A DNA stretch of 54,914 nucleotides from NCBI GenBank assembly GCA_037132255.1, contig JBAXPN010000005.1, positions 1 to 54,914 of the forward strand, in the 5' to 3' direction. Positions 14,401 through 37,090 of the stretch are shown in pieces. Every line of letters begins with the position of its first letter. Positions within the stretch are counted from its first letter, which is position 1. Under the pieces are notes generated by a model. That model saw only the letters and a list, made by a program, of their open reading frames with translations. It searched no databases and had not been told where the DNA came from. The translations under genes and the position numbers were made by a program. Origin of the DNA: Candidatus Falkowbacteria bacterium (GTDB taxonomy: Bacteria > Patescibacteriota > Patescibacteriia > Patescibacteriales > UBA12465).

Positions 14401-14572
14401 GCATGACTAAAACTAAAATTAAACCGAGCGCACCGATAATCAAACTAATTAGACCGCCAAAAATATCCGTCGCCCAATTAGCATGGGCTGGCATGGCTAG
14501 AAAAAAAATACCAATTCCTAAAAATCCAGTCAGGAGAACTACGAATCTTTTTTTCTTGTTTTTTATAGTCAT
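11435..14572 (-). CDS. Polytopic VirB6/TrbL/TcpH-like membrane protein with an approximately 700-aa hydrophilic C-terminal extension
   Basis: The track ORF starts at 14605 and overlaps the upstream gene. ATG 14572 (MTIKNKKKRF.., AGGAAAA about 13 nt upstream) gives a signal-like N-terminus ending AHA. About 7 hydrophobic helices lie in the first 330 aa or so, followed by Gly/Ala-rich glycine-zipper segments and a Lys/Ala/Ser-rich tail. The family call comes from architecture and context. Confidence 0.55.
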   Translation of the reverse strand: MTIKNKKKRFVVLLTGFLGIGIFFLAMPAHANWATDIFGGLISLIIGALGLILVLVMQALVAVAQYSNFIHAPAISNGWSVVRDVCNMFFVLILLIIAFATILRVENYSYKKWLPKLILMAILINFSKTICGLLIDFAQIVMLTFVNAFKDMAAGNLITNLGITEILTLANDSGHVSAWEIVGAYVLGLIYILIALVVIITMLAMLVMRIVMIWIYVVLSPAAYLMSAFPGGQKYSSQWWTEFSKNLIVGPVLAFFIWLSFVSLQTQNINTDFPTTGPTDTAGVAGEVGVSMDGTPVAGSEASTPGVFIKFIIAIGMLVGGLKISQEIGGAAGGIAGKGMSKITKGAAFAGGLATGALAFGGKKIKQGAANVGSAVGRSARNQSLGVASWASKGIGGAINKRAGGNTRVGDAMLGVGNIGSAWRTDMIMKNKKKKQDNRQKFLEKIGMGEKTMDKTSEFLKTDTGKALSTAMHGGGVGAAVGSFAGPVGTAIGGIAGFALGGGASVGAGKLAASSKATQERRLRQADAIQSKADTLQAQADASNDPADIKRAKKYQKLAKKARNAAGWSKSVSETAGGFQEASSQLTQKAATKGSLDIKNARKQIGVLSADPTAMEGPSGFTGATFYNKSGQTAQQKKFFEQLTNKDNPESAQAVSNMAAWASTIDTANPKEMEKLESLARGIAAFKKGKGDTSNLSGLIASLNAKSTIGTVDSLDNKVIANRKTGAIGEKGSGAFEVDSFAKNKDNISGKNVVGVDFNKMQEAGLDSEAEASIATGTNIGPIAQALSAQIAAEKAELLNAKSSGDISESDFNTRNASLDKAQTRLSNPDELKNLNLINTASANYGRQEKMASVYHEEIHAGGVDDEDLTEGMSKKLMSNKLYGRNAATGGRHATEIAKQAKSWKDQGMSNDDILSKVDNEIKTRVGAEGKSRAERVANLEKGNKETESQAVGNIEEIPALNTEVFQKSLDTLSEKVKKMASSIKPMSGSSANSAANNNLLFPLKQLNLNMRKNVSTMQALSKKTGGQAPTTIVEAGAINDELNS

Positions 14573-14580
14573 AAATATAA

Positions 14581-14811
14581 TTATTTTCCTGCGAACGAGC
14601 TCCAAATACTGCTAAGAAGAGCGCCTAAGGCTTCGAACGGATTAGATACCACTTTAACTATCATTGCGATGATTGCGATTTGCGCTAATAGTAAAAGCAT
14701 GCACCCCAGATTTAAACAACAACAGCCCATGCTTTCAATTATGTTTGCTCCCTTTTTTACAACTGCGACTGCGCCTTCTTCAGGACTTGAATTTTCAATA
14801 TTTTCAACCAT
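14581..14811 (-). CDS. Small membrane protein (77 aa) with a Cys cluster (GCCCLNLGC) entering its TM helix
   Basis: The track ORF (to 14868) overlaps the upstream gene by 50 nt. Internal ATG 14811 removes the overlap. Hydrophobic core MLLLLAQIAIIAMIVKVV. Confidence 0.5.
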   Translation of the reverse strand: MVENIENSSPEEGAVAVVKKGANIIESMGCCCLNLGCMLLLLAQIAIIAMIVKVVSNPFEALGALLSSIWSSFAGK

Positions 14812-18900: not shown

Positions 18901-21900
18901 ATACTGATCACAGTCGTGCTCGTAGCAAGCGTATTATTATTTAATAATTCTTTGACGTTACCAACAAATGTTAGAGTAGTTGTCGCCGCGTTCGTATTAT
19001 TACGAGTAGAAAAAACATAAACTTGGTTGGCAGAAATAGTTACTGTTTGCGCCCCAGCTGTAGACCAACCTTCTGCTCCATTTGAACCAATCTCCGAACT
19101 TGGATTAAAGATGATATTAGGCGCAAATTGACTAACCGGATCAATATACTCCGTACAACCGGAAGCCGTCGCATCGCAAAGACCAGCTTGCAAATCTGGC
19201 GTTGGGATTTGATTACCAGCACCACCTGGCCCAAAGGTCTTTAAATAAGAAGTTGAACAAAGATAATCGTTTGTATCAATAATACAAGGTTTATTCGAAC
19301 AATCATTTACCGAGCTACAAATTTTACCAGTTTTTTCCGTACCTTCAATTTTGCTATTACTATCAGCATCACATCTCTTAACTGGAATCTTATACCAAGC
19401 TTTTCCGGTCACAGTTAAATCTTGGCTTGCTCGGTACTGACACGTTTCATTCCCCGGATCTCTAAAGTAACTATAAGTAGCGTCCGACTCCTTCCATTCC
19501 TCGCAGCCGACTTCGGCCTGGCCACATAAAGTATTATCGTATAAATTTGGATTATTTTTCTTATAAACATCCGACCAGGCATTTGTTCCGTTAACGCTCT
19601 GCCCTAATAAGCTACAACCTAAATCCGCCGAATTACATTGTTTATTAGCGTCGTAGACGGCGTATATCGCCTCATCACGCTCAACTTTGACACAATCAGT
19701 CTCGCCGCTATCACAGACACCATTCGAATTAGTATCGTTCCAAAGACCACTACCGTACGGGGTATAATTTTGTGTAGCGAGCATCTGTTCACAACCAACC
19801 GCTGAGCCAGAGCAAAGTTTTGAGAATTTGCGCAGATTATGTTTTAGATTTCCTCGGTCAGTATATTGTGAACAACCTAAATTATATTCTTCACCCTGGA
19901 ATTTATCGGTCATGTCGTAATAGCAAATATCAGGAATTTGGCTCGTTCCCCCAATCAAATAATAACGGTCAGTTATTTCTGTCAAAACAACATCGTCAAA
20001 ATAGAAATCATGATTAGCACTAATTACTAAATGCTCATTAGCGGTAATAGCATGGTCAAGATTATCTAAATTTGTCTGATAAATATTCCATTCGCCGCCA
20101 TCCTTAATAACAAGCGTGCTAGTAGCAAATTCTGCTTTTTGAGGATTGCTAGTATCACCATTATAGAAATATATTTGCGGATTTGTCGCGACATCAGCCT
20201 TAGCAATAAAGCGAAGCGTATAGGATTTTCCTTCGCTTACTATATTGCTCACATTCAATTGCGCAACTACATTAGCGGAGGCAAAGACTTGAGTTATGAG
20301 TGGCTTCTTGGAAACTGGGGCTGACTGAGTATCATCGGCAATAGCGCCGCAGCTATTAGCCACGTCCTTATACAGCATGGAGTGCCCATTTTTATTATTA
20401 GCAATAGTGCTTAACTGCAAACCGCCGACACAATTCGAGGTCCAGCTCTGAGCGCCACTTTCGTAGTCATAATAGGACAACATCTTAACGTTGTTTCCGC
20501 TATTTCCATTATATTCACGACAACCATTTTCACTGGCCGTGCAAGTTTTTCCTTCACCTGGTATTGCCTTATAAACGCAAGCACTTAATTGCGTATCCCA
20601 AGCGCCACCGTTTAGACAAACATTACAAACGCTAGCCGCCACATCCCAATTTTTAGTTGGCGGATTAGTAGGGTTCGCTAGACATTGCGCCATTGTTAAA
20701 GTCTTATCAACATTTTTCTGGCTCATGCGGTAAGCATGGCAATTATCTGAACAAGTAATTGTGCGTGAAATTAAATGATAAGAAATTTGGCCGGCAGAAT
20801 TATAAAACTCACGACAATCGGGATTATATAATGGGTCGCCTAAACTCTTGCTATAGATAGTCGCATTACATAGACTTGAATCAACTGATGTTACCATCGG
20901 TTCGAATTGCGCAGTTCTTTGTAGGCTATATGATCTTAATTGATAACCACTTTCAACTCCCTCCCAGCTATAAAAGCTCCCACATGAAGTCGTGCTTGGA
21001 GTAATACATTGTTTCAATGAAGTATAATATTCTTTATTTTCTCCTCCTTGATTTACTTGATCCAAATTTGTGAATTCACTACAACCGGCTGCTTCGGCGC
21101 TGCAGGCAGTAGCTGTTGTCGGAATAATATTTTCCGACTGCGGCGAATTAAAATGATCTTCTTTTGAAATATAAATGTCATAACCAAGGCATTGGTTCGG
21201 ACAGTAATCAGTGCTCGTTACTTGAGCGGAAACAGCCAAGCCGTTACTAACCCCGGTATATAATTCGCAACCGACTTCTTCACGATTACACTTACGAGCA
21301 TATTTAGCACAAGCTGCCGGAGCATCGCTCTTCAAACGATAATCCTTCGTCGCTCCGCCGACATTAACATAACAAGCGGCTTCTAAATAAGGCGGTATAA
21401 TTTTTTCATAAACCCTATACGCTCCGTAAATATTATAACCAGTATCAAAATTACTAACTTCAAATTTTATATTCTTAACATAAACTCGGACGTTCGCAGT
21501 AGCCGTATCAGCATTAATGCCGAAGCTTGCCTGGCTATAAACGCCAGATGCAATACGTGTTACTGTCAGATGCTGCCAACTATTTAAAGTCGCAGTCGAA
21601 CTCACAAAGCCATCAGCAGTATCACCCTGGTAAATACTTACAGCATGACCCTCGGCTAAATAGACGTCAGCGCTAACCGTGTATGATTGTCCGGAAATAA
21701 GTTGAAAGTTTTCCGGTAGAAGAGAGTTATTGGGGTCAGAAAATGTCCCGACAACCGCATAGGCCGCATTTCCCGCAGTGCGAGTCGCGACTAATTTCAA
21801 AGCTTTACCGGCCGATCCGCCCGGCTCCTGAGTGGCGTCAACGATTGTCGCAGCGCGTGTATTATTTATAGTATTGGCTGATGACAAATAGGTCCATTCG

Positions 21901-24188
21901 TTTAATTTCGCGGTTCCTGTTGCCGAATTACCGATAACATCGCTGGCAAAATCTGTATTCATTACCAAATTAGAACCCCAGGTCGGCTTAACTCTTAATA
22001 ATTCTGTACATCCCTCGTCCTTACCATTACAGGCCCCCAAATTTTTATTTAAATAGATACTCTTATTTGTATCCCAGCTTACAGTTCCAGTTGATGTGGA
22101 ATAATTACCATTCGTCGAATATTGGCGGCAACCAGCACTTTCCGGATTACAGCCGGAATAATTTAAAGTATTTTCAAGATAAGAAACCTTCTTCCCGGAG
22201 ACAGGATTAGTAAAACTTTGGCAAGTATTAAAAATTGGTTCGCAACTGTCACCAGAAAAATTCCAAGTTCTTTTTTCTTCATTACAATAACCATAGACGT
22301 CGCAACTGCCATCATCCTTTTCTTTAATACAAGTTTGTTCGTCAGCGCAATAGTCTTCCGCTCTGGTTACGGTTAAAGCACTAGGCGTATATGGATTCCC
22401 GCTTATTCCGGGGATACTGGCCAAGATTGAGGTATCAAGAATTTGTGCGCTTACCCCCTGTTTGCGGCAATAATTAAGCGAAGCTTTCAAAACCCAATTA
22501 GGATCTACTAAACCTCGGCACCAGGCCTGGTTATGGGTATCAAAATCGGCACTAAATTGATTATAGCTATCGCTGGCGCTAAAACAAGAAACCAAATCGC
22601 TAACCGTCGGCATTTTATTAACGGTCTTTGCGTTTGAGCTAGCTTTATTAACCGCATCTTCCCAACCGATTGGTAAAATTCGGTATTTTCTTAAAATAGA
22701 AATATTACGGAGCGAATAAGTATTATCGACCGTATCTTTAGAAATTTTCCAGTCACCATGAATATAGCCGTCCTTAATTGCTTCAGCGACCGTCTTCTTT
22801 TCTGAGATTGCTTGCGCAAATTTATTATCGATCACGCAATTAGTCGGACCAGGATTTTTTGGGTCAGAGCAAATTGTTAGTTGCGATAAAATATCATAGT
22901 CTGCTTCAACGCCAAAATTTGGTTTTATAATTGAAGAGCTTACCTCTTTAACGGTCCCTTCGCCGTAAGAAACGGTTGGGTCACTTCCCGGATTTTGCAC
23001 ATCCGGAGTTCCCGCTGACTTCTGGCCTATTTTTGATAATAAGTCATTAAATTTAGTAATCGCGTATTGATTTAAAAAGACATTAGCGGCGTCAACAACA
23101 ATATCGCCCGTAACCTTTCCTAGACCCGCTCCCATTAAATTTCCCGCTAAGTCACGTTTTGCTTCTGCATCCCCAGGAACGCCAATCAATTCTTTTGCCG
23201 CATTTGTTTTGCCAAGCCATCCCTTGTTAGCTGCTAAGTTAAGTCGACTATTTTGATCAGCGATTGTTTGTTTAGCGAGCATGCCCTCATTCGCAGACAT
23301 ATAGATTCCTAAATCGTTTGCTGTCGGATTAAAAAAGCCGGCGAAGGTTTGTAAAAAATCAGTGTTCTTCATGTCCTCATATCTCTGGACTTCGTCTCCC
23401 CAGTTTTCAATCATTTTGGTGGCCGTACAGTTTGAGTCGGTCGCTCTTTGATATTGGACAAGGCCTAAACCGATTTTTACTTTCGCCTGCAAAGAAGATG
23501 GTTGGCAAACATTAAGAGTCGGTACACCGGCCGTGCCTATTTTTGTGCTCCCAGAGGAACCACTAGTTAATTTATCAACATTAGCGTCGCAAGCCGTGGC
23601 GTCCGTTTTACATTTTTGCGAACATGCACTAAAATCTGTCGTCATTTGGTCAGTGAGCTTTGTTAAATCCTCCATTGTTGACCAACATACCTTATCACAT
23701 TCCTGATATGTATTTTGACATTCGGTCCTCTTTACTCCGTTGGCCTCTGATGTTGCTAAATTATTGGCAAAAGTTTCAATAAACTGCCCAGCCGCTTCAT
23801 CGCCGATTTGACCCAAATATGCCCCCCAATCTTGAGTTATAAATAATGGCTTCTGTCCTTTATCTCCCGACCCTAAGTAGGTAGCCGTATCATAGGCAAT
23901 TTTATTCAAGGCTGTTCTGGCTACTGACTGAAAAGTTGCTGAACCAGATTTTTGCCATAAATATTTAAGGGCCGTCGCAACCTTGGTCATAATACTGCCC
24001 TTAACTTGAAGAGCGGCCCCAAGAGTATCCACGGTTAACAACTGCGCATTGGCCTTACGGACAGGTGTAGATAAGAAAGAAAAGAGCATAATAAAAACCA
24101 GCAAAAAAATAGCGATTTTTCTACTTGTTCCCTTGGCACTCTTCTTTGATAAATTTAAAGAAGATTTCATTTTATTATTTATATCCAA
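15957..24188 (-). CDS. Giant (about 2743 aa) secreted, cysteine-rich multi-domain surface protein
   Basis: Uninterrupted 8.2-kb ORF. The track start is TTG 24188, abutting the upstream stop, and ATG 24170 (MKSSLNL..) is an alternative. N-terminal signal/anchor IAIFLLVFIMLFSFLSTPVRKANA. About 90 Cys by manual count. Repeated C-x6-C loop motif, four jelly-roll/CBM-like modules ending in ..YFDDVVLTEI / ..YFDDINIEPV / ..VKNIKFEV, and a PKD-like C-terminus (HVFYHYYKNTGNNTITIKIHDNWDKEG). Confidence 0.8.
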   Translation of the reverse strand: MDINNKMKSSLNLSKKSAKGTSRKIAIFLLVFIMLFSFLSTPVRKANAQLLTVDTLGAALQVKGSIMTKVATALKYLWQKSGSATFQSVARTALNKIAYDTATYLGSGDKGQKPLFITQDWGAYLGQIGDEAAGQFIETFANNLATSEANGVKRTECQNTYQECDKVCWSTMEDLTKLTDQMTTDFSACSQKCKTDATACDANVDKLTSGSSGSTKIGTAGVPTLNVCQPSSLQAKVKIGLGLVQYQRATDSNCTATKMIENWGDEVQRYEDMKNTDFLQTFAGFFNPTANDLGIYMSANEGMLAKQTIADQNSRLNLAANKGWLGKTNAAKELIGVPGDAEAKRDLAGNLMGAGLGKVTGDIVVDAANVFLNQYAITKFNDLLSKIGQKSAGTPDVQNPGSDPTVSYGEGTVKEVSSSIIKPNFGVEADYDILSQLTICSDPKNPGPTNCVIDNKFAQAISEKKTVAEAIKDGYIHGDWKISKDTVDNTYSLRNISILRKYRILPIGWEDAVNKASSNAKTVNKMPTVSDLVSCFSASDSYNQFSADFDTHNQAWCRGLVDPNWVLKASLNYCRKQGVSAQILDTSILASIPGISGNPYTPSALTVTRAEDYCADEQTCIKEKDDGSCDVYGYCNEEKRTWNFSGDSCEPIFNTCQSFTNPVSGKKVSYLENTLNYSGCNPESAGCRQYSTNGNYSTSTGTVSWDTNKSIYLNKNLGACNGKDEGCTELLRVKPTWGSNLVMNTDFASDVIGNSATGTAKLNEWTYLSSANTINNTRAATIVDATQEPGGSAGKALKLVATRTAGNAAYAVVGTFSDPNNSLLPENFQLISGQSYTVSADVYLAEGHAVSIYQGDTADGFVSSTATLNSWQHLTVTRIASGVYSQASFGINADTATANVRVYVKNIKFEVSNFDTGYNIYGAYRVYEKIIPPYLEAACYVNVGGATKDYRLKSDAPAACAKYARKCNREEVGCELYTGVSNGLAVSAQVTSTDYCPNQCLGYDIYISKEDHFNSPQSENIIPTTATACSAEAAGCSEFTNLDQVNQGGENKEYYTSLKQCITPSTTSCGSFYSWEGVESGYQLRSYSLQRTAQFEPMVTSVDSSLCNATIYSKSLGDPLYNPDCREFYNSAGQISYHLISRTITCSDNCHAYRMSQKNVDKTLTMAQCLANPTNPPTKNWDVAASVCNVCLNGGAWDTQLSACVYKAIPGEGKTCTASENGCREYNGNSGNNVKMLSYYDYESGAQSWTSNCVGGLQLSTIANNKNGHSMLYKDVANSCGAIADDTQSAPVSKKPLITQVFASANVVAQLNVSNIVSEGKSYTLRFIAKADVATNPQIYFYNGDTSNPQKAEFATSTLVIKDGGEWNIYQTNLDNLDHAITANEHLVISANHDFYFDDVVLTEITDRYYLIGGTSQIPDICYYDMTDKFQGEEYNLGCSQYTDRGNLKHNLRKFSKLCSGSAVGCEQMLATQNYTPYGSGLWNDTNSNGVCDSGETDCVKVERDEAIYAVYDANKQCNSADLGCSLLGQSVNGTNAWSDVYKKNNPNLYDNTLCGQAEVGCEEWKESDATYSYFRDPGNETCQYRASQDLTVTGKAWYKIPVKRCDADSNSKIEGTEKTGKICSSVNDCSNKPCIIDTNDYLCSTSYLKTFGPGGAGNQIPTPDLQAGLCDATASGCTEYIDPVSQFAPNIIFNPSSEIGSNGAEGWSTAGAQTVTISANQVYVFSTRNNTNAATTTLTFVGNVKELLNNNTLATSTTVISIPGNTNRSRMFFSMNNSSVIVSGGGSTEGANKTIELKTAIVGYQLKENIDKNSCNGVVNLDNGCVLFNERSISGSSGLADLSNKYNAQTSLSGQAPVLCVASSTGSCNANQLIKVSPNRVCSKWLDCLTYTQDPVTQERTCFAVGECTRLNDKNECISFEDAPTGTMTYNASGQNKNATGYYLLNKYHLSNMSEVGINTDAHYDFEDSVPAISCRRADNGSACVFSKNIITDLLVREPEKAPNDYPAHGASYVRVPGAYLVSPQSSNSWTTVIPNKQYFINFLVNTKNSGMGAVLIMKMPGAGKSEIAIPNATQSFYSNNGWTRQIFSFNPGVATSVKIYLGATDTTSDRQVYFDDINIEPVLEVNANSSSTKQYIARECRLYPTNDSLTCVNKNNNVLKDGWEGYCLEHDPNNKDVCLMWYPVDEISSSMTTRNSSGYQGKFPLNYCTELNGNFDLVEKRKTILIGADDTLGSCSNSSTDNGFNESQSNTNCATDYVMFYYEYNHQVGGHDHCNGNTWCIPRRPGLAVTVMEGEINRGTFTLNSGSNGALISEQTRTSGGADEPSRDVVTNSDGWYRYNGYAKNNSQHTCGSNDCTILNEETNADPAVRVLDYGQAPADEDGLKLISGNDEDKIFRLTCNRFVQAVDNNGDNKAWAARTSINSIWTTSTPPFFIDYAQAGISYYGPGIRTTHSIAAYGRNRQDVPFGAALWPDDFSLYNSEAIKFRNQYSVKNSENILAGRPYGCSNYNTPSEIGNGCSKIGYCSLDPSVYCLFGTATSTDYVARKTCADGGYGTCVPLWNNYLGRTDVNTNVGPDFENILSQLFLKSYNTYSFTNGAYVPGGTGIDRNPNTCATPSRPVDTYATTPAGIVNNFCAINPKIGSRVVVKYNNQVIATTSSFFIPKKGVYSLEFNTIIDAEQQPLKDIYIKWGANESDQLITGQDSRPNQDSPHVFYHYYKNTGNNTITIKIHDNWDKEGGY

Positions 24189-24839
24189 TTATTGATTAAT
24201 TGTATTACTAGTTGTTGTCGCTGCTTCCTGACTATTAATCGATTCCTCGTATATTTTTAATAAATCAGCATCACTAATTTTATCTAGAGTCGCCTGTTCA
24301 ACGCCGCTCTTTAAAAGTTCTTCTCTAATCATGGTGGGAGTAACGCCTATTTCGCTTGCGCTCGGTGTGCTTGTGCCTAGTGAGTCTTGCGTTAAGGCTC
24401 CAAAATCGAGAATATCAGTAGAGCTCGCATTTGGATTTGTTATTCCGTTCGATGCTGTTCCAGTCGTGCCGCAATCTTTACCGCTTGCACAGTTCGGATC
24501 AGTTCCCTGTTCAATTTCCTGCTTATCATTTATCCCGTCACTATCCGAATCTTCGAGATATGGAGAGGTATGATAAACATTAACCTCGTCGCTATCAGAA
24601 ATACCATCACCGTCCGAATCTTTAAGAGAAGGGTCAGTGCTTGTTGCTTGATTTTTTTTTGTCAATCCGCTCGCGAGATTAAAAGGGCTATTTAATTGCG
24701 CACTAAGTTGGACAACCCAAAGAACAATAATCATAATCGCGAAGACAGCCAAAAAAACCACCGCCATTTTTTGCTGGCGTGGTAAATTTTTTATTGTCTG
24801 AGGATTGAGATTGCGATTCTCTTGGCTCTCAGTCGGCAT
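24189..24839 (-). CDS. Membrane-anchored protein with thrombospondin type-3-like Ca-binding repeats
   Basis: 216 aa. TM MAVVFLAVFAIMIIVLWVV. Repeats DSDGDGISDSDE and DSDSDGINDKQEIEQGTDP. Confidence 0.7.
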   Translation of the reverse strand: MPTESQENRNLNPQTIKNLPRQQKMAVVFLAVFAIMIIVLWVVQLSAQLNSPFNLASGLTKKNQATSTDPSLKDSDGDGISDSDEVNVYHTSPYLEDSDSDGINDKQEIEQGTDPNCASGKDCGTTGTASNGITNPNASSTDILDFGALTQDSLGTSTPSASEIGVTPTMIREELLKSGVEQATLDKISDADLLKIYEESINSQEAATTTSNTINQ

Positions 24840-28978: not shown

Positions 28979-29030
28979 AAATTATGTTATACTAAAATTA
29001 TACTTTAAGTGAGCATATTTTTCAATTTAT

Positions 29031-29780
29031 ATGAGCTTAGAAGATAGAGTTAAATTCGCCGAAATGAAAGCGCGCCACGAAAAAAAACTTCGCCCTTGGT
29101 ATAAAAAATGGTGGGGTGTTTTTATTATATTAATTATTGGTCTGATACTAATCGCTTTAGTTAGTTCTGGCTTCTATATTTATAATGAAATTAAAAGAAT
29201 AAATGAGGAAGACGCGCAGAATTATATCAAAGACCAACACCAGGCATATTTAGATTTAATTAGTGGTCCAGGCGGTTATACAATCGGGACACTAACACCA
29301 AAAATAACTGTTGTTGAATTCACTGACTTTGCCTGCCCGTACTGTAAGCAATCTGCTCCAGAAATTCGAAAACTAATGGAAGAATATAAAGATACGGTAA
29401 AATTAGTTATTCGCGATTATCCGATTCATGATAATTCGATTGATCTGGCCATTGCCGCGCGCTGTGCCGGTGAACAAGGAAAATACTGGGAAGCTTACGA
29501 TTCACTCTTCACGAATCAAGATAATCTAATTGGCACCTCTACCATCCAAAATGATATATTATCTTGGGGCGAGTTTCTGAAACTTGATTCCGCTCGATTC
29601 AAAACTTGTATAACTGACAAACGCTATATCGATCTAGTAAAACGTGACTACGATGATGGTAATAAATTAAAAATTCAAGGTACGCCGACTTGGTTCGTTA
29701 ATAATTATCCAATTACCGGATACTATTCGGCCGAAAGATTTAAAGAATTATTCGATGGAATACTCCAACAAATTAAATAA
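29031..29780 (+). CDS. Membrane-anchored DsbA-like thiol:disulfide oxidoreductase
   Basis: 249 aa. N-terminal TM WGVFIILIIGLILIALVSSGFYIY. Thioredoxin-fold CxxC FTDFACPYCKQ. Conserved ..GTPTWFVN. Confidence 0.8.
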   Translation: MSLEDRVKFAEMKARHEKKLRPWYKKWWGVFIILIIGLILIALVSSGFYIYNEIKRINEEDAQNYIKDQHQAYLDLISGPGGYTIGTLTPKITVVEFTDFACPYCKQSAPEIRKLMEEYKDTVKLVIRDYPIHDNSIDLAIAARCAGEQGKYWEAYDSLFTNQDNLIGTSTIQNDILSWGEFLKLDSARFKTCITDKRYIDLVKRDYDDGNKLKIQGTPTWFVNNYPITGYYSAERFKELFDGILQQIK

Positions 29781-29781
29781 T

Positions 29782-30330
29782 ATGGAACAAATAAGAGTTC
29801 ATGGTCGCGGCGGACAAGGTGTCGTAACCGCCGCTGAATTAATTGCGCTCGCTGCTTTTTACGAGGGATATGAATCTCAAGCCTTTCCTAGTTTTGGTGT
29901 CGAAAGAACCGGCGCACCGATTCAATCATTCGCCCGTATCAGCAAAAAACCGATTATCACCCGCGAACAAATCTACGAACCAACAATCTTAATCATTCAA
30001 GATGCAACCCTGCTTGATTCTGTTGATGTTTTTTCTGGTTGCACAAAAGACACAATTATAATTATTAATTCCGCAGAAAATCGCTGGCCAAAACTGACCG
30101 CTAAATATAAAAAACTTTATTTTACCGCTGCGACTGAAATCGCTCTCGAAATATTTGGTAAAAATATTGTTAATACCGTTATTCTTGGCGCTTTCGCCAA
30201 GCATACAAATTTAGTCGGTCTTGAATCCTTAAAAAAGGCCATTGCCACCAAATTTAAAGATAAAGGCGAGGATATGATTAAGAAAAATATCCAAGCTATC
30301 ACCAAAGATTATGAAAACGCCAAAAATTAA
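29782..30330 (+). CDS. porC: Pyruvate/2-oxoacid:ferredoxin oxidoreductase, gamma subunit
   Basis: MEQIRVHGRGGQGVVTAAELIA.. is the typical gamma N-terminus. ATG 29782 follows the dsbA-like stop, whereas the track start 29755 overlaps it. Confidence 0.85.
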   Translation: MEQIRVHGRGGQGVVTAAELIALAAFYEGYESQAFPSFGVERTGAPIQSFARISKKPIITREQIYEPTILIIQDATLLDSVDVFSGCTKDTIIIINSAENRWPKLTAKYKKLYFTAATEIALEIFGKNIVNTVILGAFAKHTNLVGLESLKKAIATKFKDKGEDMIKKNIQAITKDYENAKN

Positions 30331-30586
30331 TTTAATAACAAAAGCAAATACTACTCTTAATAACAAAACCGGCCCTTGGCGTACCCAAAAACCGGTAACT
30401 GATTATAATACATGTATTAGTTGCTCAACCTGCGCAAAAATTTGTCCCGAGGCCTGCATTGAAATGGAACAAATAAAAAATTATCCGAAATTAAAACCCG
30501 TAACCGATTATGACTACTGCAAAGGCTGTGCTTTATGTGTTCATGAATGTCCGGTTAAAGCAATTAAAATGGTAGATGACTACTAA
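30311..30586 (+). CDS. porD: Pyruvate/2-oxoacid:ferredoxin oxidoreductase, delta subunit (2x[4Fe-4S] ferredoxin)
   Basis: 91 aa. CISCSTCAKICP and CKGCALCVHECP cluster motifs. Confidence 0.88.
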   Translation: MKTPKINLITKANTTLNNKTGPWRTQKPVTDYNTCISCSTCAKICPEACIEMEQIKNYPKLKPVTDYDYCKGCALCVHECPVKAIKMVDDY

Positions 30587-30587
30587 T

Positions 30588-31736
30588 ATGGAAAATAAAA
30601 AACAAATCTTAGAGGGATCACAAGCGATTGCCGCTGTCGTTAATAATATTAATCCAGCAGTAATTTCAGCGTATCCAATAACCCCCCAAACTCATATCGT
30701 TGAAAAACTCGCCAAGCTAAAAGCAAACGGTGAGGCAAATTATGAGTATGTCCGTGCCGAAAGTGAATTCGCCGCCGCTTCTATAATACTGGGCGCCAGT
30801 GCAACCGGAGTCCGCGTTTATAGCGCCACCAGTTCTCAAGGTCTTCTTTTAATGTCCGAGGTTGTTTTTAACATCGCCGGCATGAGACTGCCGATTGTTA
30901 TGACTTGTGCTAATCGCGCCGTATCTGCCCCAATTAATATCTGGAATGACCAAAGCGATGTTATGGCAATTCGCGACGCCGGCTGGATTCATTTATTCGC
31001 TGAAAATAACCAAGAAGCAGTAGACCTTCATATTCTGGCTTATAAAATTGCCGAGAAATTAAAATTACCAGTCATGGTTAATGTTGACGGTTTTATTTTG
31101 ACCCACGCCTTTGAACCCGTTATTATTCCGGACGCTAAAACAATTAAAAAATATTTACCTGAATATAAGCCGGCCACAGGAACTTATCTTGATCCTAGTA
31201 ACCCAGTAACTCTCGGCGCTTTTTTTACGCCGGCCCATTATTTCGAAACTCGCGTTGATCTCCATAATGATTTAATCGATAGTCTAAAAGTAATAAAAAA
31301 AGAATATAAGAATTTGCTTAGCGTTCTTGGACGAAAAAATCGCGATAACGGCCTAGTCGAATATTTTGGTCCGAAGAATCCAGAAACAATTTTAGTAGCT
31401 CTCGGCTCAGTTATTGGCACGATTAGGGAAACAGTAAAAGATGATAATAAAATTGGAGTATTAAAAATAAAAACTTATCGACCTTTTCCGGCAGACGAAG
31501 TAAATAAGATTCTGCTTAAAGCAAAAAATATTGCCGTGATTGAAAAAGCGATAAGTCTCGGCCAAGCTGGACCGCTATATTCTGATATCAAAGCCGGCCT
31601 CCCGATTAATAAGCTAAATATTAGTAACTATATTGTTGGTCTCGGTGGTCGCGATGTAACCCAAAAAATGATCAAAACTATTATTAGTAATGCTAAAGCA
31701 CATAATAATAAAACAAAATTTATTGGGAAAATATGA
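30588..31736 (+). CDS. porA: Pyruvate/2-oxoacid:ferredoxin oxidoreductase, alpha subunit
   Basis: About 382 aa. GSQAIAAVV..AYPITPQT N-terminus is typical of PorA. Ends in TGA, overlapping the next ATG (ATGA). Confidence 0.88.
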   Translation: MENKKQILEGSQAIAAVVNNINPAVISAYPITPQTHIVEKLAKLKANGEANYEYVRAESEFAAASIILGASATGVRVYSATSSQGLLLMSEVVFNIAGMRLPIVMTCANRAVSAPINIWNDQSDVMAIRDAGWIHLFAENNQEAVDLHILAYKIAEKLKLPVMVNVDGFILTHAFEPVIIPDAKTIKKYLPEYKPATGTYLDPSNPVTLGAFFTPAHYFETRVDLHNDLIDSLKVIKKEYKNLLSVLGRKNRDNGLVEYFGPKNPETILVALGSVIGTIRETVKDDNKIGVLKIKTYRPFPADEVNKILLKAKNIAVIEKAISLGQAGPLYSDIKAGLPINKLNISNYIVGLGGRDVTQKMIKTIISNAKAHNNKTKFIGKI

Positions 31737-32839
31737 GAAACTTAAAAAGCAATCGAGCTAAGTTTATAATCAGTCTATTTTCGGCTATTCAGATACTCAG
31801 CGCTATCTTAATTTTATCCCGCCCGCTTCCGGCCGCCGCACAAACAGAGTTCCCTTCTCTAAACTTTAAGCCCCAAGTAAATATTCCGAATTCAGAATTT
31901 ATGAATGCGACGTCAGCGGTCGGACGCTACGACTCCGCTACCGGAAAAATGAATAGCACTTTACTCGCTCGTTATATTAAAGCTTTTTATGATTACGGGA
32001 TAACTATTGCCGGAATACTCGCGACGATTGTTTTAATGGCGGGCGGTGTCGTTTGGTTAGTATCTGGCGGCGACTCTGGTAAGATTGGCCAAGCGAAAGA
32101 ACTTATTACTGGTAGTATTGTTGGTATGCTAATTTTAGTCTGCGCTTGGATTATTTTAAATACGGTAAATCCTAATTTAGTTAAATTAGAAGCAATTAAA
32201 ACAACGGTGATCAAAAAGGTTGCTACTTGTTGTGATCCGACCAAAGGCGGAGTCCTAATGGATAAAGAAGGAAATTGCACGAGCGGCTCGAAATGCCAGG
32301 GATCAGAAAAATGCGAACCAGATATGAATAAAACGCCTACCACCTACTCCTGTGTCGATAGAAATAAATATGCCTGTTGTCAGTTTGGCAAATTTCAAGG
32401 TGAACAAAAAACATTTTGCTTATTAGTTGATAAAATTAATGGCAAAGCAAACACGGCAAAATGTGATGCAAAATATGCCGCCCTTGTTGCAAGTGATCCT
32501 AATTGGACTTCTAACGGCGCGCCTTATACAGCCTACGACACTAGTTGTCTTCGGTTAGGCCAAATTGATGGCTATATGGGCATTTATTGCACTACTTCGA
32601 ATCTCTGCCCAGATACTTATGAAGACGGGAGGGGTTGCTCTGATATGCTGGCTGATCATTGGTGCTATAGAAATACATGCGTAGTCGGCCCCGGCAAAGC
32701 CGTTAATGATCCTTGTGGCAACGACAAGGGGCGCTGTCTAAAAGTTACCGACAACTCTTGTCCGGGGAAAGAAAAACATGATACTGGAGCGCGAGAATGT
32801 GATGAAGCCCTTAACTTACGCTGCTGTACAACTTATTAA
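31733..32839 (+). CDS. Secreted membrane protein: signal peptide, T4SS-pilin-like two-helix module, then an approximately 200-aa Cys-rich C-terminal domain
   Basis: 368 aa. Signal peptide ending AAAQ. The module YIKAFYDYGITIAGILATIVLMAGGVVWLVSGGDSGKIGQAKELITGSIVGMLILVCAWIILNTVNPNLV matches my memory of the CPR T4SS_pilin family. About 27 Cys follow it. Confidence 0.65.
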   Translation: MRNLKSNRAKFIISLFSAIQILSAILILSRPLPAAAQTEFPSLNFKPQVNIPNSEFMNATSAVGRYDSATGKMNSTLLARYIKAFYDYGITIAGILATIVLMAGGVVWLVSGGDSGKIGQAKELITGSIVGMLILVCAWIILNTVNPNLVKLEAIKTTVIKKVATCCDPTKGGVLMDKEGNCTSGSKCQGSEKCEPDMNKTPTTYSCVDRNKYACCQFGKFQGEQKTFCLLVDKINGKANTAKCDAKYAALVASDPNWTSNGAPYTAYDTSCLRLGQIDGYMGIYCTTSNLCPDTYEDGRGCSDMLADHWCYRNTCVVGPGKAVNDPCGNDKGRCLKVTDNSCPGKEKHDTGARECDEALNLRCCTTY

Positions 32840-32846
32840 TCAATTT

Positions 32847-33722
32847 ATGCAAAATACTAAAAAACAAAAATTCCTTTCCCCTGGACATAACGCCTGCGCT
32901 GGTTGCGGACAACTCGTGGCCGCTCAAGCGGTAATGAGGGGACTAAATAAAAATGTAATTATTGCAAATGCGACTGGTTGTTTAGAGGTAACGACTACTG
33001 CCTATCCGCAAAGTTCTTGGGGTCTCCCTTGGATTCATTCCCTATTTGAAAATGCTTCTGCACTCGCATCTGGAATTAGAGCAGCTCTCGATAAAAAAAA
33101 TGACACAATTACTAAAGTTGTTGTTCAGGCTGGCGACGGCGGAACTTACGATATTGGTCTCGGCCTTATTAGTGGTATGTGGGAACGAGGCGAAAATATA
33201 TTATATATTTGCTATGACACCGAAGCCTATTCTAACACCGGAATTCAAGCATCGGGCGCAACTCCTTATGGCGCCGATACCACTACTTCGCCGCAGGGCC
33301 TAAAATCAATTGGCTCAACACAAAGAAAAAAAGATATGATCGCCCTCGCCTTAGCGCATGGCCTTAAATATGCCGCTCAAGCAAGTGCCGGTTTCCCGGA
33401 CGACATCACCAATAAAGTAAAAAAGGCTTTAGAAATAAATGGTCCAGGCTATATTCAAATTCTTTCCCCTTGTGTACCAGGCTGGAGAATTAATAACGAC
33501 GAAGGAGTAATGATGGGAAAACTCGCGGTATCAACTGGACTCTTCCCTCTTCTTGAATATACTGATGGTAAGTTAAGCGCCTCAAGTATTAATGCTAATT
33601 TTATCGCCAAGCCGGTTGAGGAATATCTAAAGGGCCAAGGACGTTTTAAACACTTAAAACCGGAAGAAATTATTGCGATTCAAAAATTAGCTGACGAAAA
33701 TATTAGAAAGTATAAAATATAA
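32847..33722 (+). CDS. porB: Pyruvate/2-oxoacid:ferredoxin oxidoreductase, beta subunit (TPP-binding)
   Basis: SPGHNACAGCG N-terminal motif, GDGGTYDIG TPP motif. ATG 32847 lies 8 nt after the preceding stop, whereas the track start 32778 overlaps. Confidence 0.88.
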   Translation: MQNTKKQKFLSPGHNACAGCGQLVAAQAVMRGLNKNVIIANATGCLEVTTTAYPQSSWGLPWIHSLFENASALASGIRAALDKKNDTITKVVVQAGDGGTYDIGLGLISGMWERGENILYICYDTEAYSNTGIQASGATPYGADTTTSPQGLKSIGSTQRKKDMIALALAHGLKYAAQASAGFPDDITNKVKKALEINGPGYIQILSPCVPGWRINNDEGVMMGKLAVSTGLFPLLEYTDGKLSASSINANFIAKPVEEYLKGQGRFKHLKPEEIIAIQKLADENIRKYKI

Positions 33723-33730
33723 AAGATAGT

Positions 33731-34861
33731 ATGAAAAAATTTTTCTATGCTCTAAGTTTATTTGGAATATTTTTTATTTTTTCGACTCCGGTTTTAGCGG
33801 CTTGTAGTTGGGAGACTGAACTGACAACAAGCACTTCGGCTGGACCAGGCATGACGCCGGTTGTGACTGTGTCAGGCGGCTGTAAAGCTAAGAGCTTAAT
33901 TAAAGATAGTGATAGCAAGTGCACAGCTACAAAGCCTGTTTTTAGTACAAATTCAGGAAAAACGTCAGTTTGTTGCTGCACTGAGGTTTTGGTGGCGAGC
34001 GCTGACAGCGCTCCATTACTAAAAGCTCCAGATTTTCTTGTATCTATTCCGGGAATGAAAGCTTTAAGCACAGTAAATTGCGAACCAGGATCTAATGGCG
34101 GATATTTTTGCGAAATACCTTGGCTTGGAGAATATGTTGTTGGCCTGTATAGCTACGCTCTAAGTATTGCCGGGATACTCGCCGCTATAATGCTTATGGC
34201 TGGAGGTCTTATCTGGTTAATTTCTGCCGGTGATGCCTCAAAAATCACACAAGCCAAAGAAATAATTATTGGCAGTATAACAGGATTAATAATCCTAGCA
34301 GCTTCTTTTATTATTTTACTACAAATAAACCCTGACTTAATAAAAATGAAATCTATTGCCGTTAACGGCATAAAAAAACTTGTTTTATATGATGCAGATG
34401 TCACCGTTATTGGCGGAGAAAATCCTTATGGAGATGCCTGCGGGGCTGCTAAAAAAGGAGATTTTTCAATTTGCCGAGCTCTCGGCAATTCCCAACCAAG
34501 TACTTTAGTTTCTCTTGAAAATGAACAAGCGGACTCTGCAGTGGCTAAAAAATATTTAGCGGCGATGGAATGCGTAAAAGAAAAAAACGGTAAATATTTA
34601 TTTGCCGTAAATGAAGGTTGGCGATCTGCCGCAACTCAATTACAATACTATTCAAGCGGAAAAGCGGCGGCTACTCCATGTTGTTCAAACCACGGATCAG
34701 GAAAATCCTTGGACCTAAAAAGACTTGATAGTGCAGAAATGTCATGGACAAATAATGTTAATACTGGGCTAACGGCCTGTATGAATACTCAAGGCCTATA
34801 CGCTAATCTTAGTAGCAGAGCTTATAATGAGCCTTGGCATTGGTCTTTAACGGGCAAATAA
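33731..34861 (+). CDS. Secreted or lipoprotein fusion: Cys-containing N-domain, T4SS-pilin-like two-helix module, then a peptidase M15 (VanY/D-Ala-D-Ala carboxypeptidase-like) domain
   Basis: 376 aa. Signal peptide with lipobox-like LAAC. The module YVVGLYSYALSIAGILAAIMLMAGGLIWLISAGDASKITQAKEIIIGSITGLIILAASFIILLQINPDLI is paralogous to 31733-32839. C-terminal EGWRSAATQ, SNHGSGKSLDL and NEPWHW are the M15 zinc-ligand motifs. Confidence 0.7.
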   Translation: MKKFFYALSLFGIFFIFSTPVLAACSWETELTTSTSAGPGMTPVVTVSGGCKAKSLIKDSDSKCTATKPVFSTNSGKTSVCCCTEVLVASADSAPLLKAPDFLVSIPGMKALSTVNCEPGSNGGYFCEIPWLGEYVVGLYSYALSIAGILAAIMLMAGGLIWLISAGDASKITQAKEIIIGSITGLIILAASFIILLQINPDLIKMKSIAVNGIKKLVLYDADVTVIGGENPYGDACGAAKKGDFSICRALGNSQPSTLVSLENEQADSAVAKKYLAAMECVKEKNGKYLFAVNEGWRSAATQLQYYSSGKAAATPCCSNHGSGKSLDLKRLDSAEMSWTNNVNTGLTACMNTQGLYANLSSRAYNEPWHWSLTGK

Positions 34862-34863
34862 AA

Positions 34864-35268
34864 TTACTTCCCTCTGTCCATCGCTTCATTGGCGAGACGA
34901 TCAGCTTCTTTATTCCGCTCCCGCGGAATATGAGTATAAGAAATTTTCTTAAAATCTAAACTTAAATTGTGAATCATTAAAAACAAAGGCGCTAAGTCTT
35001 TGTTTTTTACTTTATATTCCCGTTTCAATTGTTTAACGACTAATTCGCTATCAAGATAACAATCAAGCTCGCTAGCGCCTAAAGATTTCGCTCGAGTTAT
35101 GGCAGCGATTAAAGCTTTATACTCCGCCTGATTATTCGTAGCGACGCCTAAATACTCAGAAATTTCGGCAATTACTTTTTTATTTTCATCATAAATAACA
35201 GCTCCAATTCCGGCTGGACCAGGATTACCACGCGCTCCACCGTCAGTAAAAATAATAACTTTAGTCAT
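34864..35268 (-). CDS. rnhA: Ribonuclease HI-family protein
   Basis: 134 aa. FTDGGARGNPGPAGIG, NNQAEYKALI, DSELVVKQ, and NKEADRLAN, which carries the DEDD catalytic pattern. Confidence 0.85.
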   Translation of the reverse strand: MTKVIIFTDGGARGNPGPAGIGAVIYDENKKVIAEISEYLGVATNNQAEYKALIAAITRAKSLGASELDCYLDSELVVKQLKREYKVKNKDLAPLFLMIHNLSLDFKKISYTHIPRERNKEADRLANEAMDRGK

Positions 35269-37090
35269 ACTTTTTTATATCAATCATTTTTAATTGCGGT
35301 TCACGGCGTCCGTTAAAATCATTAACCTCTAAATAATAGACTAGATTAACGCGATCTCCAATTTTATACTCTTTATAGTTTGCGGCTCCACCAAAAGCGA
35401 GCGCCCAAAAAGAATGTGCATTTTTTGCCGGAGAAGCGGAATTATATTGTGAGAATCTAATTTTAATATGTTGATTATCAAAACCCATTGTTGTAATATC
35501 ATCAATTCTTAAATCATAGGAAACGAATCTTGGTTGCTGATTGTTTTGACCATAAGGTGCAAGTTTATTTATATCATCCGCTAAATCTAAATTAATCGCT
35601 GAAAAATCTAATTCTGTTTCAATTTTTAATTTCGGAATCAACGCCGTTTTTTCAATTCTTTCTTCTGCTAATTTTTGGATACTAGCTGTAAATTTTCCTA
35701 AACTTTCTTCCGACTTAACAGAAAAACCACAAGCCATCGGATGACCGCCGTATTTATCTAAATTCTCGGCACAATCTTCAATGGCGTGAATAAGATTAAA
35801 TTCTTCGACTGAGCGACCAGAGCCTTTGAAGGCAACTTTCTTCGGTACTAATTTTTTCGCGATCGGATCAAATTCCGCCTCTTCAATTAAACGAGTAATT
35901 ATCAGAGTCGGGCGATAATATTTTTCCGTAATTTTTCCGGCCACAAGACCAATAACGCCCTCATTCCAAATTTGATCTTCACCGGCGATACCGACAATGA
36001 GATTAGGTAAATTATTTTTATCTATTTGTTCTTCTACTTGAGAAATTATTTCTTCAGTAATTTGCTGACGACTAATATTTCGCTGATTGAGCTCTGTCGC
36101 TAGTTCGGCGGCCTCTGCCTGATCGGTCGTTGTTAAGAGTGCAAAGGCGCTATTAGCGTGGCTCAAACGGCTCGCTGCATTTAAACGCGGACCAATTTGC
36201 CAACCAATATTCCAAGCTTCAAGCGGCTTCCCGCTATTAATTTTTGAAACTTTAATTAATTCATTTAGACCCAAGCGCTTACTGGTATTTAAAATCTTTA
36301 AGCCACTTTTAACGAGTAGTCGATTTTCACCAAGAAGACTAACCATATCCGCGACCGTTCCGACGGCTACAAGATCAAGACTTTTATCAAGAATCAATTG
36401 CTTCTGTTTCTCTGGTAAATTGGCTTTAAAAAGTAGGGCGCTGATTAGTTTAAAGGCTACTCCAACGCCCGCTAAATAAGGCCAGGGGTAGGCCTCAGCC
36501 TTATCGGCAGGATCAATATAAAGGCAATCTGGGGCGTCTTTTGGATCTTCAGGCAAGACGTGGTGATCGGTCACAATAATTTCTAGCCCTTTACTTTTAG
36601 CGTAAGCAATTTCTTCTTTGTTGCGGATTCCATTATCAACTGTGATAAGCAATTTAAAACCCTGGGCCACAATCTGATTAATGGCTACCTTATTTAAACC
36701 ATAACCCTCAGTAACACGGTCTGGTAAATAAACCTCAACTGTCGCTTTAAGTATTTTTAGAGTTTCGAGAAGAATAACTGAAGATGTAACGCCATCAGCA
36801 TCATAATCGCCGTAGACAACTATCGGGCTTCCCTTTTTTATATGACCAATTATTAAATCAACAGCCGCCGCCATATTTTTAAAGAGAAAGGGGTCATAAA
36901 AAGCGTGCTCAGGATTTTCCCCAATCACTAAAATCTTATCGGCGCTTAATTCGCTATCAAGAAATGCCTTTATATCAACTTTATTTTTCAAATCGCGATT
37001 AAAGAGTAACTGCAAAAGAACCGGATTAATTTCCGGGTATTCATGCAAAAACTCGTCGCTTGCTTTAGGCGAAATTTGCCATTTCTTCAT
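35261..37090 (-). CDS. recJ: Single-stranded-DNA-specific exonuclease RecJ
   Basis: 609 aa. DHH motifs GDYDADGVTS, ITVDNGI, IVTDHH. DHHA1 GGHPMACG. Confidence 0.9.
   Translation of the reverse strand: MKKWQISPKASDEFLHEYPEINPVLLQLLFNRDLKNKVDIKAFLDSELSADKILVIGENPEHAFYDPFLFKNMAAAVDLIIGHIKKGSPIVVYGDYDADGVTSSVILLETLKILKATVEVYLPDRVTEGYGLNKVAINQIVAQGFKLLITVDNGIRNKEEIAYAKSKGLEIIVTDHHVLPEDPKDAPDCLYIDPADKAEAYPWPYLAGVGVAFKLISALLFKANLPEKQKQLILDKSLDLVAVGTVADMVSLLGENRLLVKSGLKILNTSKRLGLNELIKVSKINSGKPLEAWNIGWQIGPRLNAASRLSHANSAFALLTTTDQAEAAELATELNQRNISRQQITEEIISQVEEQIDKNNLPNLIVGIAGEDQIWNEGVIGLVAGKITEKYYRPTLIITRLIEEAEFDPIAKKLVPKKVAFKGSGRSVEEFNLIHAIEDCAENLDKYGGHPMACGFSVKSEESLGKFTASIQKLAEERIEKTALIPKLKIETELDFSAINLDLADDINKLAPYGQNNQQPRFVSYDLRIDDITTMGFDNQHIKIRFSQYNSASPAKNAHSFWALAFGGAANYKEYKIGDRVNLVYYLEVNDFNGRREPQLKMIDIKKYD

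Follow-up and report, generated by a model that had tools for sequence, protein, structure and literature searches.

We analysed a 54,914-nt stretch of DNA (hereafter the window) from a Candidatus Falkowbacteria bacterium of the Patescibacteriota (contig JBAXPN010000005.1), in which the genes of a four-subunit pyruvate:ferredoxin oxidoreductase (PFOR) share a block with two genes, pil1 and pil2, whose products carry a module of a type IV secretion system (T4SS) pilin family. The listing of open reading frames (ORFs) and the reading of each junction show that positions 29031-34861 hold a single tightly packed + strand block with the order dsbA-porG-porD-porA-pil1-porB-pil2. All ORFs named in a preliminary description of this DNA are present on that strand, to which we add the first gene, encoding a dsbA-like membrane-anchored thiol:disulfide oxidoreductase (29031-29780; Pfam Thioredoxin_4 and DSBA). 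It is followed by porG for the gamma subunit (29782-30330; Pfam POR, 140 bits), porD for the delta subunit, a 2x[4Fe-4S] ferredoxin-like protein (30311-30586; Fer4_21 and Fer4), porA for the alpha subunit (30576-31736; POR_N, 242 bits, and PFOR_II, 82 bits), pil1 (31733-32839; 368 aa), porB for the thiamine pyrophosphate-binding beta subunit (32847-33722; 291 aa; TPP_enzyme_C, 67.7 bits) and pil2 (33731-34861; 376 aa). The contiguous gamma-delta-alpha-beta order is thus broken by pil1 between alpha and beta.

The junctions are as compact as the preliminary description had reported. The ATG of pil1 at 31733 overlaps the porA TGA at 31734-31736 as ATGA; the pil1 TAA ends at 32839 and the porB ATG follows at 32847, with a 7-nt spacer and the start on the eighth nucleotide past the stop; and 8 nt separate the porB TAA, ending at 33722, from the pil2 ATG at 33731. 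An alternative longer porB ORF from 32778 exists, and the start at 32847 is favoured by the relatives, in which PorB has 289-292 aa and begins just past the pilin stop; the alignment to the NCBIfam PorB model begins at residue 3 of this start. For porA, an alternative ATG at 30588 would match the 382-aa length called in relatives. Because dsbA and porG are 1 nt apart, the following genes overlap, by 4 nt at the porA-pil1 junction, and the last spacers are 7-8 nt long, the seven genes probably form one transcription unit. A consensus scan found 21 promoter-like sites compared to 17.7 +/- 4.7 expected, which is no excess, and 5 terminator-like sites compared to 6.3 +/- 2.5 expected, none of them convincing internally on the + strand from dsbA to pil2. 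The sole + strand terminator-like hairpin past pil2 is found at 34979-35007 (12 pairs, of which 3 are G-C, and a T-run); it is weak, lies inside the convergent RNase H gene and could end the por-pil transcript.

The block order is real and not an assembly artefact, because contigs of separate sequencing runs and independent assemblies agree on it. One 22-kb contig of run X1 spans 29000-35300 with zero differences, a 2069-bp contig assembled independently from run X3 reads through the porA/pil1 and pil1/porB junctions, and the same gene order is found in dozens of independent assemblies (NCBI, ENA, JGI and Logan). Run X1 also contains a minor contig (446 nt, depth 4.1) that joins 31492 to 31703 and skips 210 nt of the 3′ end of porA; this contig represents a divergent co-occurring strain, probably with a different porA end.

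The families of a four-subunit 2-oxoacid:ferredoxin oxidoreductase are all present in the block (POR; Fer4; POR_N and PFOR_II; TPP_enzyme_C). Against NCBIfam, porG scores 193.5 bits with PorC_KorC (cutoff 81), with an alignment starting at residue 1 of the 29782 start, and porD scores 92.7 bits with PorD_KorD (cutoff 60). The best match of porA, PorA_Arch at 454 bits, falls under the equivalog cutoff of 550, as does the 360 bits of porB with PorB under its cutoff of 405; pyruvate is the likeliest candidate substrate. The enzyme looks functional, because four conserved subunits are accompanied in the window by an ADP-forming acetyl-CoA synthetase (43822-45807, - strand; CoA_binding, Succ_CoA_lig and ATP-grasp_5 domains), the partner expected of a PFOR, which would complete a pathway yielding ATP by substrate-level phosphorylation. 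The DsbA-like protein (Thioredoxin_4, 93.5 bits; DSBA, 59.7 bits) has a CPYC motif (C102/C105) and a basic N-terminus followed by one transmembrane (TM) segment at about residues 23-54 (hydropathy). We dismissed its similarity to the F-type pilin-assembly isomerase TrbB (19.7 bits, cutoff 132) as generic thioredoxin similarity.

Next we turn to the two inserted proteins. The preliminary description had proposed that they share a pilin-like module, and this module is real: BLASTP aligns about 80 aa with two helices at 45/86 identities (52%, E 3e-28), and Pil1 and Pil2 are alike, and paralogous, in this module alone. Pfam places it in the T4SS_pilin family (PF18895), to which Pil1 residues 91-144 match with 31.4 bits (gathering threshold 26.6) and Pil2 residues 139-195 with 26.1 bits, 0.5 bit below the threshold. 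In related loci, the family is matched by 40/44 of the first-position and 24/26 of the later-position homologues (the latter at E <= 0.01). The TrbC/VirB2 profile (PF04956), which had been named as a second candidate, is absent from the Pfam matches at E <= 1, where PF18895 alone is listed. Furthermore, AlphaFold2 (AF2) models, built on 39-sequence family alignments for Pil1 (A1) and for Pil2 (A2), and hydropathy bear out the layout that had been read from the sequence, with a predicted signal peptide and a pair of hydrophobic helices that flank a short polar loop (GGDSGK and AGDASK by hydropathy), with cleavage sites of the AxA type, read by eye, between AAA and Q and between VLA and A. The loop is predicted to face the cytoplasm with both termini outside the membrane, and from the family assignment and topology we infer that the module may work like the VirB2 hairpin.

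The term pilin-like holds for the anchor module and not for the whole proteins. We use “pilin” for the module only, because most of Pil1 and Pil2 is ectodomain and each protein is about three times the size of VirB2. A VirB2/TrbC-type pilin would be expected to have about 70-120 aa when mature, no extra folded domains and a gene beside virB3/virB4 in the T4SS cluster; Pil1 and Pil2, at 368 and 376 aa, have predicted folded N- and C-terminal ectodomains (AF2 predicted local distance difference test, pLDDT, 70-98), and their genes lie outside that cluster.

Pil1 has a predicted signal peptide at residues 1-36, cleaved between AAA and QT, a short beta segment with a conserved F-x-P-Q-x-x-I-P motif, the hairpin at residues 77-150 (nt 31961-32182) and a C-terminal ectodomain at residues 156-368 (32198-32836). 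The AF2 model (mean pLDDT 78) places helices at 6-28, 77-110 and 115-145. The ectodomain is predicted to be beta-rich (pLDDT about 80) and contains 22 cysteines in 213 aa, with the cysteine columns conserved across A1. The A1 profile matched no PDB chain at E <= 10. A Foldseek comparison of the model with PDB folds and the viral BFVD gave nothing under E 0.6, which leaves an orphan fold, and no match to the solved pilins. An exhaustive phmmer search of 1.84 billion representative proteins found only 5 relatives of the C-domain. In all five the domain comes after residue ~155 and the whole protein is similarly long, with PF18895 present in the four that were cross-checked, and because of this shared architecture the search gave no functional lead. 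An adhesin or host-recognition module is the most likely role of the domain as judged from its sequence character.

Pil2 is of a different kind. Behind a signal peptide (residues 1-23) and an N-terminal cysteine-containing beta ectodomain (24-129), the hairpin at residues 130-204 (nt 34118-34342) is followed by a low-confidence linker and a C-terminal peptidase (34421-34858); the AF2 model has a mean pLDDT of 81 and helices at 3-16, 130-164 and 169-199. The C-terminal 146 residues (pLDDT 89-98) form a zinc peptidase of the LAS/MEROPS M15 type, similar to VanY, LdcB and Ply500. The A2 profile matches PDB sequences of the Ply500 L-Ala-D-Glu peptidase (2vo9, E 1.3e-5), LysB4, LdcB/DacB and VanXY, and Foldseek matches the C-domain to VanXYc, LdcB, VanY, Ply500 and LysB4 with a probability of 1.00 and E 1.7e-5 to 6.5e-4. 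R298, H321 (SNHGSG), D328, E367 and H370 (EPWHW) are invariant over the 39 A2 sequences and align with the SxHxxGxAxD motif of 2vo9, so that zinc ligands (H-x6-D ... H), catalytic Glu and substrate Arg are all present. Pil2 itself scores 13.8 bits (E 0.053) with Pfam VanY (PF02557), under the gathering threshold of 25 bits; several orthologues carry precomputed matches to PF02557, PF01427 or PF13539. Ply500 and LysB4 are phage endolysins with L-Ala-D-Glu endopeptidase activity, and LdcB/DacB are LD-carboxypeptidases; the predicted activity of the Pil2 domain is the cleavage of peptidoglycan stem peptides. The cysteine of a lipobox-looking “VLAAC” is conserved in A2 as a C-x-W motif, even behind about 60 extra residues. 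The VLAAC context is not conserved in A2 and we do not claim lipidation.

To survey the por loci of related genomes we retrieved 80 loci via PorA, with one genome per GTDB species, and annotated them with the window proteins and a hidden Markov model (HMM) of the module; loci L007-L078 are from Patescibacteria and L079-L086 are outgroups. One or two pilin-module genes lie behind porA in 47 of about 70 Patescibacteria loci. Among these are metagenome-assembled genomes (MAGs) that carry the labels Falkowbacteria and Kuenenbacteria, and identity to the PorA of the window falls as low as about 56%. Of these 47 loci, 36 show porB and the remainder end before it. The spacer between a pilin gene directly 5′ of porB and porB is 1-34 nt in nearly all cases, and a subclade that includes the window has a further pilin-module gene behind porB. 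Conversely, Buchananbacteria-labelled and some other lineages have an uninterrupted dsbA-porGDAB, and all eight outgroup loci (Planctomycetes, Omnitrophota and Actinobacteria) have a contiguous porGDAB without dsbA. When contexts were retrieved through Pil1/Pil2 homologues with por ignored, 9/9 were found in por loci, among them a relative with three pilin-module genes in a row behind porB. Collectively, these results indicate that the insertion is conserved over a deep clade and not strain-specific, and that it is an old, positionally conserved feature of the por operon. The neighbour-joining tree is compatible with a single old insertion that was later lost in places, such as in Buchananbacteria, and also with repeated insertions.

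The survey also revealed variation around the insertion. In one clade (14 loci, among them L024, L030 and L037), an inversion puts dsbA-porG-porD on the opposite strand, with an ExoIII-like gene in between, while porA-pilin-porB(-pilin) stays intact; the PFOR subunits of this clade would be expressed from two divergent units. In many loci (12 were recorded) the porA stop and the first pilin ATG do not overlap and are about 145-220 nt apart, which may mean that the start codon is wrongly called or that an internal promoter or regulatory element is conserved there. In locus L091 (3820-7315), porB is followed by three consecutive genes: two encode pilin modules, the first combined with M15_4 and the second with VanY, and the third is a 385-aa ORF without a Pfam match, which suggests a local amplification of hydrolase-bearing pilin-module genes. 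The porA-porB junction holds rmlA-like/rmlB-like sugar-nucleotide genes in two pilin-free lineages (L041, 7174-7986; L052, 5114-6928), and toxin-antitoxin-like, GIY-YIG, four-helix-bundle, HEPN-like and AAA-ATPase genes lie beside the pilin genes in five loci (L008, L016, L020, L026 and L078); the junction behaves as a permissive, variable insertion site. A dsbA-like gene is found directly 5′ of porG in nearly all Patescibacteria por loci, pilin-free ones included. Many “MAG TPA_asm” records titled “uncultured Gammaproteobacteria” or, in some cases, “Planctomycetia” (L007, L012, L014, L017-L020 and others) have syntenic loci with PorA 60-81% identical to that of Patescibacteria MAGs, and their organism labels look like placeholders or misassignments.

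While the position is old, the sequences that occupy it change rapidly. In comparisons with the closest relatives, the identity is 71-92% (76-92% without one PorD value) for PorG/D/A/B, RNase H, RecJ, ExoIII and LeuRS and 63-78% for DsbA, compared to 56-68% for the N-region and module of Pil1 and 34-41% for its C-domain. The Pil2 C-domain of the nearest relatives (L001 and L003) is of a different M15 subtype, and the more distant L022, L024, L030 and L037 have the subtype of the window at 56-61% identity; because nearest relatives differ and distant ones match, this domain has been replaced between lineages. The two gene positions also differ in kind. The first pilin-module gene past porA almost always has a cysteine-rich C-domain (more than 6% Cys in 34/47) and a LAS domain in 0/47, and later pilin-module genes carry VanY, M15, M15_4, NlpC/P60, SLT_3, 3D, Amidase_2 or C39_2 domains, so that fusion to a hydrolase is the rule for the second class. 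Cysteine counts are high and mostly even in nearly all ectodomains.

The GC content is 0.425 for pil1, 0.403 for pil2 and 0.420 for porB, with a window mean of 0.387. A foreign composition of the pil genes is ruled out, as their GC and third-position GC (GC3) fall inside the range of the por genes. The preliminary description had named two outcomes that would speak against it, a lack of similarity to T4SS pilins, and an independent porB promoter together with recent, strain-specific inserts of different composition; with the PF18895 match, the deep conservation and the native GC content, neither holds. A recent strain-specific acquisition or an assembly chimera is refuted: the GC of pil1, slightly above the window mean, is no support for it since porB is equally at 0.42, the order is identical in assemblies from four sources with contigs of separate runs spanning the junctions, and the insertion is shared by lineages with PorA only 56-68% identical.

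Elsewhere in the window lies a T4SS-like cluster with a VirB4-like gene (5920-7812), a PrgI/VirB3-like gene (8505-8924) and large membrane ORFs without a Pfam match (8931-14605). That this cluster has no pilin of its own, as had been noted before, is confirmed by Pfam and the module HMM, neither of which gives a PF18895 match; a lenient HMM search of the cluster for short hidden pilins (E <= 10, filters off) also found none, and within the 54.9-kb window only pil1 and pil2 carry the module. The isolation of the pil genes from the T4SS stands in part: they lie outside the cluster, but within the +/-20 coding sequences (CDS) that a published survey used to call a VirB2 near a VirB4 (PMC12102498). 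The window also encodes MurJ.

The cluster is directly flanked by RecG (1072-3108, + strand) and RadA/Sms (3890-5236, - strand), in agreement with the recG/radA-T4SS co-localisation described in the concluding remarks of PMC12102498. Between the cluster and the por block (15957-24839, - strand), a 2743-aa ORF has a signal-anchor-like N-terminus and no Pfam match and is followed by a bacterial TSP3-repeat protein of 216 aa; L089 (1-1047) has this pair (2929 aa and TSP3) 5′ of por. The ORF is possibly a giant surface protein of the same host-interaction neighbourhood.

We hypothesize that Pil1 and Pil2 are Sec-exported, disulfide-rich, hairpin-anchored proteins for interaction with a host or its wall, possibly handled by a T4SS, that ride on por transcription, and we give this explanation a probability of roughly 0.55. 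Under this hypothesis, both proteins would be exported by Sec and inserted as a hairpin (TM1, short cytoplasmic loop, TM2) with the N- and C-domains outside, where the cysteines of the ectodomains (22 in the Pil1 C-domain, 8+6 in Pil2) would be oxidised. DsbA at the head of the block would be the obvious and probable catalyst, though dsbA was linked to por before the pilin genes were. Pil1 would then display a hypervariable disulfide-knotted domain, most plausibly for recognition of a partner surface, and Pil2 a stem-peptide peptidase, which in T4SS terms would join a wall hydrolase of the VirB1 type to an anchor of the VirB2 type. Through the hairpin, both may be connected to the nearby T4SS-like machine, whether as pilus subunits (decorated or minor ones) or as membrane anchors close to the T4SS. 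This link is suggested because PF18895 is the pilin family of Patescibacterial T4SS clusters, essential in Southlakia (PMC10633639), because VirB1 is mostly unrecognisable in such genomes (PMC12102498), and because the T4SS cluster of the window has no pilin while pil1 is 17 CDS from virB4. The por location would stem from an insertion that entered the porA-porB junction long ago and that the compact operon structure has preserved in a large clade (Falkowbacteria, Kuenenbacteria and relatives). The pil genes would ride on a fermentation operon that is indispensable and constitutively transcribed, with no part in PFOR chemistry; their functional link to por is probably regulatory only. The anatomical and comparative parts of this explanation are near-certain, and the T4SS link and the adhesin role are its weak steps.

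Several points weigh against this explanation. The runs that contain the locus are freshwater, lake, wastewater and sediment DNA metagenomes with no RNA run among them, so the operon is deduced from DNA. A module-only profile (A5) searched against all PDB chain sequences at E <= 10 gave zero matches and thus no solved pilin. The only structural pilin match is that of the Pil2 hairpin to the Aeropyrum pernix conjugation pilin 8dfu (template modelling score 0.67 by target, root-mean-square deviation 2.1 Å over 68 columns), a weak one (Foldseek probability 0.72, E 4.7), and helical hairpins are common. A domain of 170-210 aa on a pilin terminus may also be hard to pack into a pilus. pil1 (start at 31733) lies 24 kb from virB4, outside the T4SS cluster. 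What speaks for an adhesin role of Pil1 is its secreted, cysteine-rich and fast-evolving character, and LdcB-like peptidases can be housekeeping enzymes of wall maturation. Finally, dsbA is linked to por in relatives without pilin genes there, and therefore DsbA was not recruited for the Pil proteins.

Other explanations were considered. The hairpin may be a generic bitopic anchor, with Pil2 a housekeeping LdcB/VanY carboxypeptidase for the cell's own wall, Pil1 a structural envelope protein and neither having a T4SS or host role. The highest-scoring structural neighbours of Pil2 do include LdcB LD-carboxypeptidases, which act in wall maturation, MurJ indicates that the cell makes its own peptidoglycan, and the pil genes occupy a syntenic core-genome position amid housekeeping genes and are not adjacent to virB4. 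However, the anchor is specifically of PF18895, otherwise found in the pilins of T4SS clusters (PMC12102498, PMC10633639), and neither an identity of 34-41% next to neighbours at 76-92% nor catalytic swaps among M15, NlpC/P60, SLT, 3D and amidase types would be expected of housekeeping enzymes, so that we consider this account unlikely, if credible. At the other end, Pil1 and Pil2 could be polymerising major pilins of the VirB4 system at 3.9-15.9 kb, with their ectodomains coating the fibre. This would agree with the membership in PF18895, the superposition of the Pil2 hairpin on a conjugative pilin, the position inside the +/-20 CDS neighbourhood of PMC12102498 and the lack of any other PF18895 gene in the T4SS cluster or the rest of the window. 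Against it, a length of 368/376 aa is roughly triple that of a usual pilin, both termini carry folded domains, the structural match is weak and polymerisation putative, and the genome beyond the window may hold short pilins; we regard this as quite improbable.

A biochemical coupling of the Pil proteins to PFOR, as a membrane tether or as an extracellular cysteine-rich redox or metal sink for electrons of reduced ferredoxin in an organism that lacks a respiratory chain, is in our view very improbable. In its favour, porA-pilin-porB stays together very persistently, also where an inversion has split the operon, the pilin-to-porB spacing is tight, and the block combines very cysteine-rich ectodomains with a thiol:disulfide oxidoreductase. 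The predicted cytoplasmic loop of about 6 residues is nevertheless too small for docking of an enzyme, hypervariable and exchangeable ectodomains stand against a conserved PFOR, dsbA-porGDAB serves sister lineages without a pilin gene, and unrelated cargo (rmlA/rmlB, toxin-antitoxin-like) sits at the same junction in some genomes. Bolder than our favoured explanation of exported, hairpin-anchored interaction proteins is the idea that the por pair supplies the pilus and the means of breaching the wall that are missing from the T4SS, with Pil1 an adhesin-tipped VirB2-like subunit, Pil2 a VirB2-VirB1 fusion and expression hard-wired to fermentation, which we offer tentatively and hold to be doubtful. 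If true, host attachment or attack and energy metabolism would be regulated as one unit, and the “missing VirB1” of many Patescibacteria would be hidden as hydrolase domains on PF18895 modules.

Taken together, these results show that the pilin module serves in addition as a carrier of large ectodomains, including a toolbox of peptidoglycan hydrolases, and provide concrete candidates for the binding and breaching of host walls by ultrasmall epibionts. Hypervariable genes deeply conserved within an essential energy operon are an unusual operon architecture, and the arrangement offers a simple testable model in which the expression of a feeding apparatus is coupled to metabolism. In practical terms, PorA is a marker from which candidate host-interaction genes can be found in 47 of the approximately 70 sampled Patescibacteria por loci, and annotation pipelines that label such genes “pilin” or “hypothetical” overlook the enzyme domain. 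The operon architecture and the VirB2-hydrolase fusions are noteworthy for specialists in T4SS and in the biology of the Candidate Phyla Radiation. The gene family as such is already known, and existing surveys may have counted the locus. In the literature searched, including PMC10633639 and PMC12102498, we did not find the conserved placement of pilin genes at the porA-porB junction, the split of tasks between a cysteine-rich first and a hydrolase-bearing second gene, or the use of a pilin module as a carrier of peptidoglycan hydrolases in pilin-hydrolase fusions; a literature search on PF18896 gave nothing relevant.

Compared to known systems, the locus combines familiar parts in an unfamiliar arrangement. 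Like the canonical porGDAB operons of archaea and anaerobic bacteria, it has all four conserved subunits. The canonical operons are contiguous, whereas in the window dsbA is prefixed, as it is Patescibacteria-wide in our sample, and alpha and beta are split by one or two pilin-module genes, often with another one after beta. The LAS/M15 enzymes (LdcB/DacB, VanY/VanXY, Ply500 and LysB4) share with the Pil2 domain the fold, the zinc-ligand and catalytic residues and a profile-level similarity at only 16-23% identity; in Pil2 the domain is fused behind a pilin-like hairpin and a cysteine-rich N-domain.

VirB2, TraA and archaeal CedA1 pilins share the layout of signal peptide, hydrophobic helix pair and short polar loop, but have no sequence-level match to the module, and the window proteins are much larger, with polymerisation only putative. 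VirB2-like pilins are typical of Patescibacterial T4SS, and in the one cultivated case, Southlakia epibionticum, the T4SS cluster has a six-gene pilin array that is essential (PMC10633639). The module of the window belongs to the same Pfam family as the Southlakia pilins, with paralogues that are divergent in sequence and genes within 20 CDS of virB4; a host-adaptive variability has been put forward for the family. The Southlakia pilin genes are inside the T4SS cluster, whereas the pil genes are in a central-metabolism operon, at a position conserved over a deep clade. Furthermore, VirB2-type pilins are small proteins (PMC12102498), unlike Pil1 and Pil2 (368/376 aa) with their large ectodomains.

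Most genomes with VirB2 lack a recognisable VirB1 (PMC12102498). The VirB1-type hydrolases of monoderms (PrgK, TcpG and TrsG/CD419) are anchored in the membrane and bear at least one peptidoglycan-hydrolase domain; Pil2 is comparable to them as a predicted membrane-anchored extracytoplasmic peptidoglycan hydrolase tied to a T4SS-type component. Unlike the genes of these hydrolases, pil2 lies outside the T4SS cluster. The VirB1-type proteins have a single N-terminal TM segment and SLT/CHAP domains, whereas Pil2 has a VirB2-like hairpin and a LAS/M15 domain, a likeness for which we claim no homology; the Pil2 orthologues draw their catalytic domains from the same toolbox of SLT, NlpC/P60 and peptidases.

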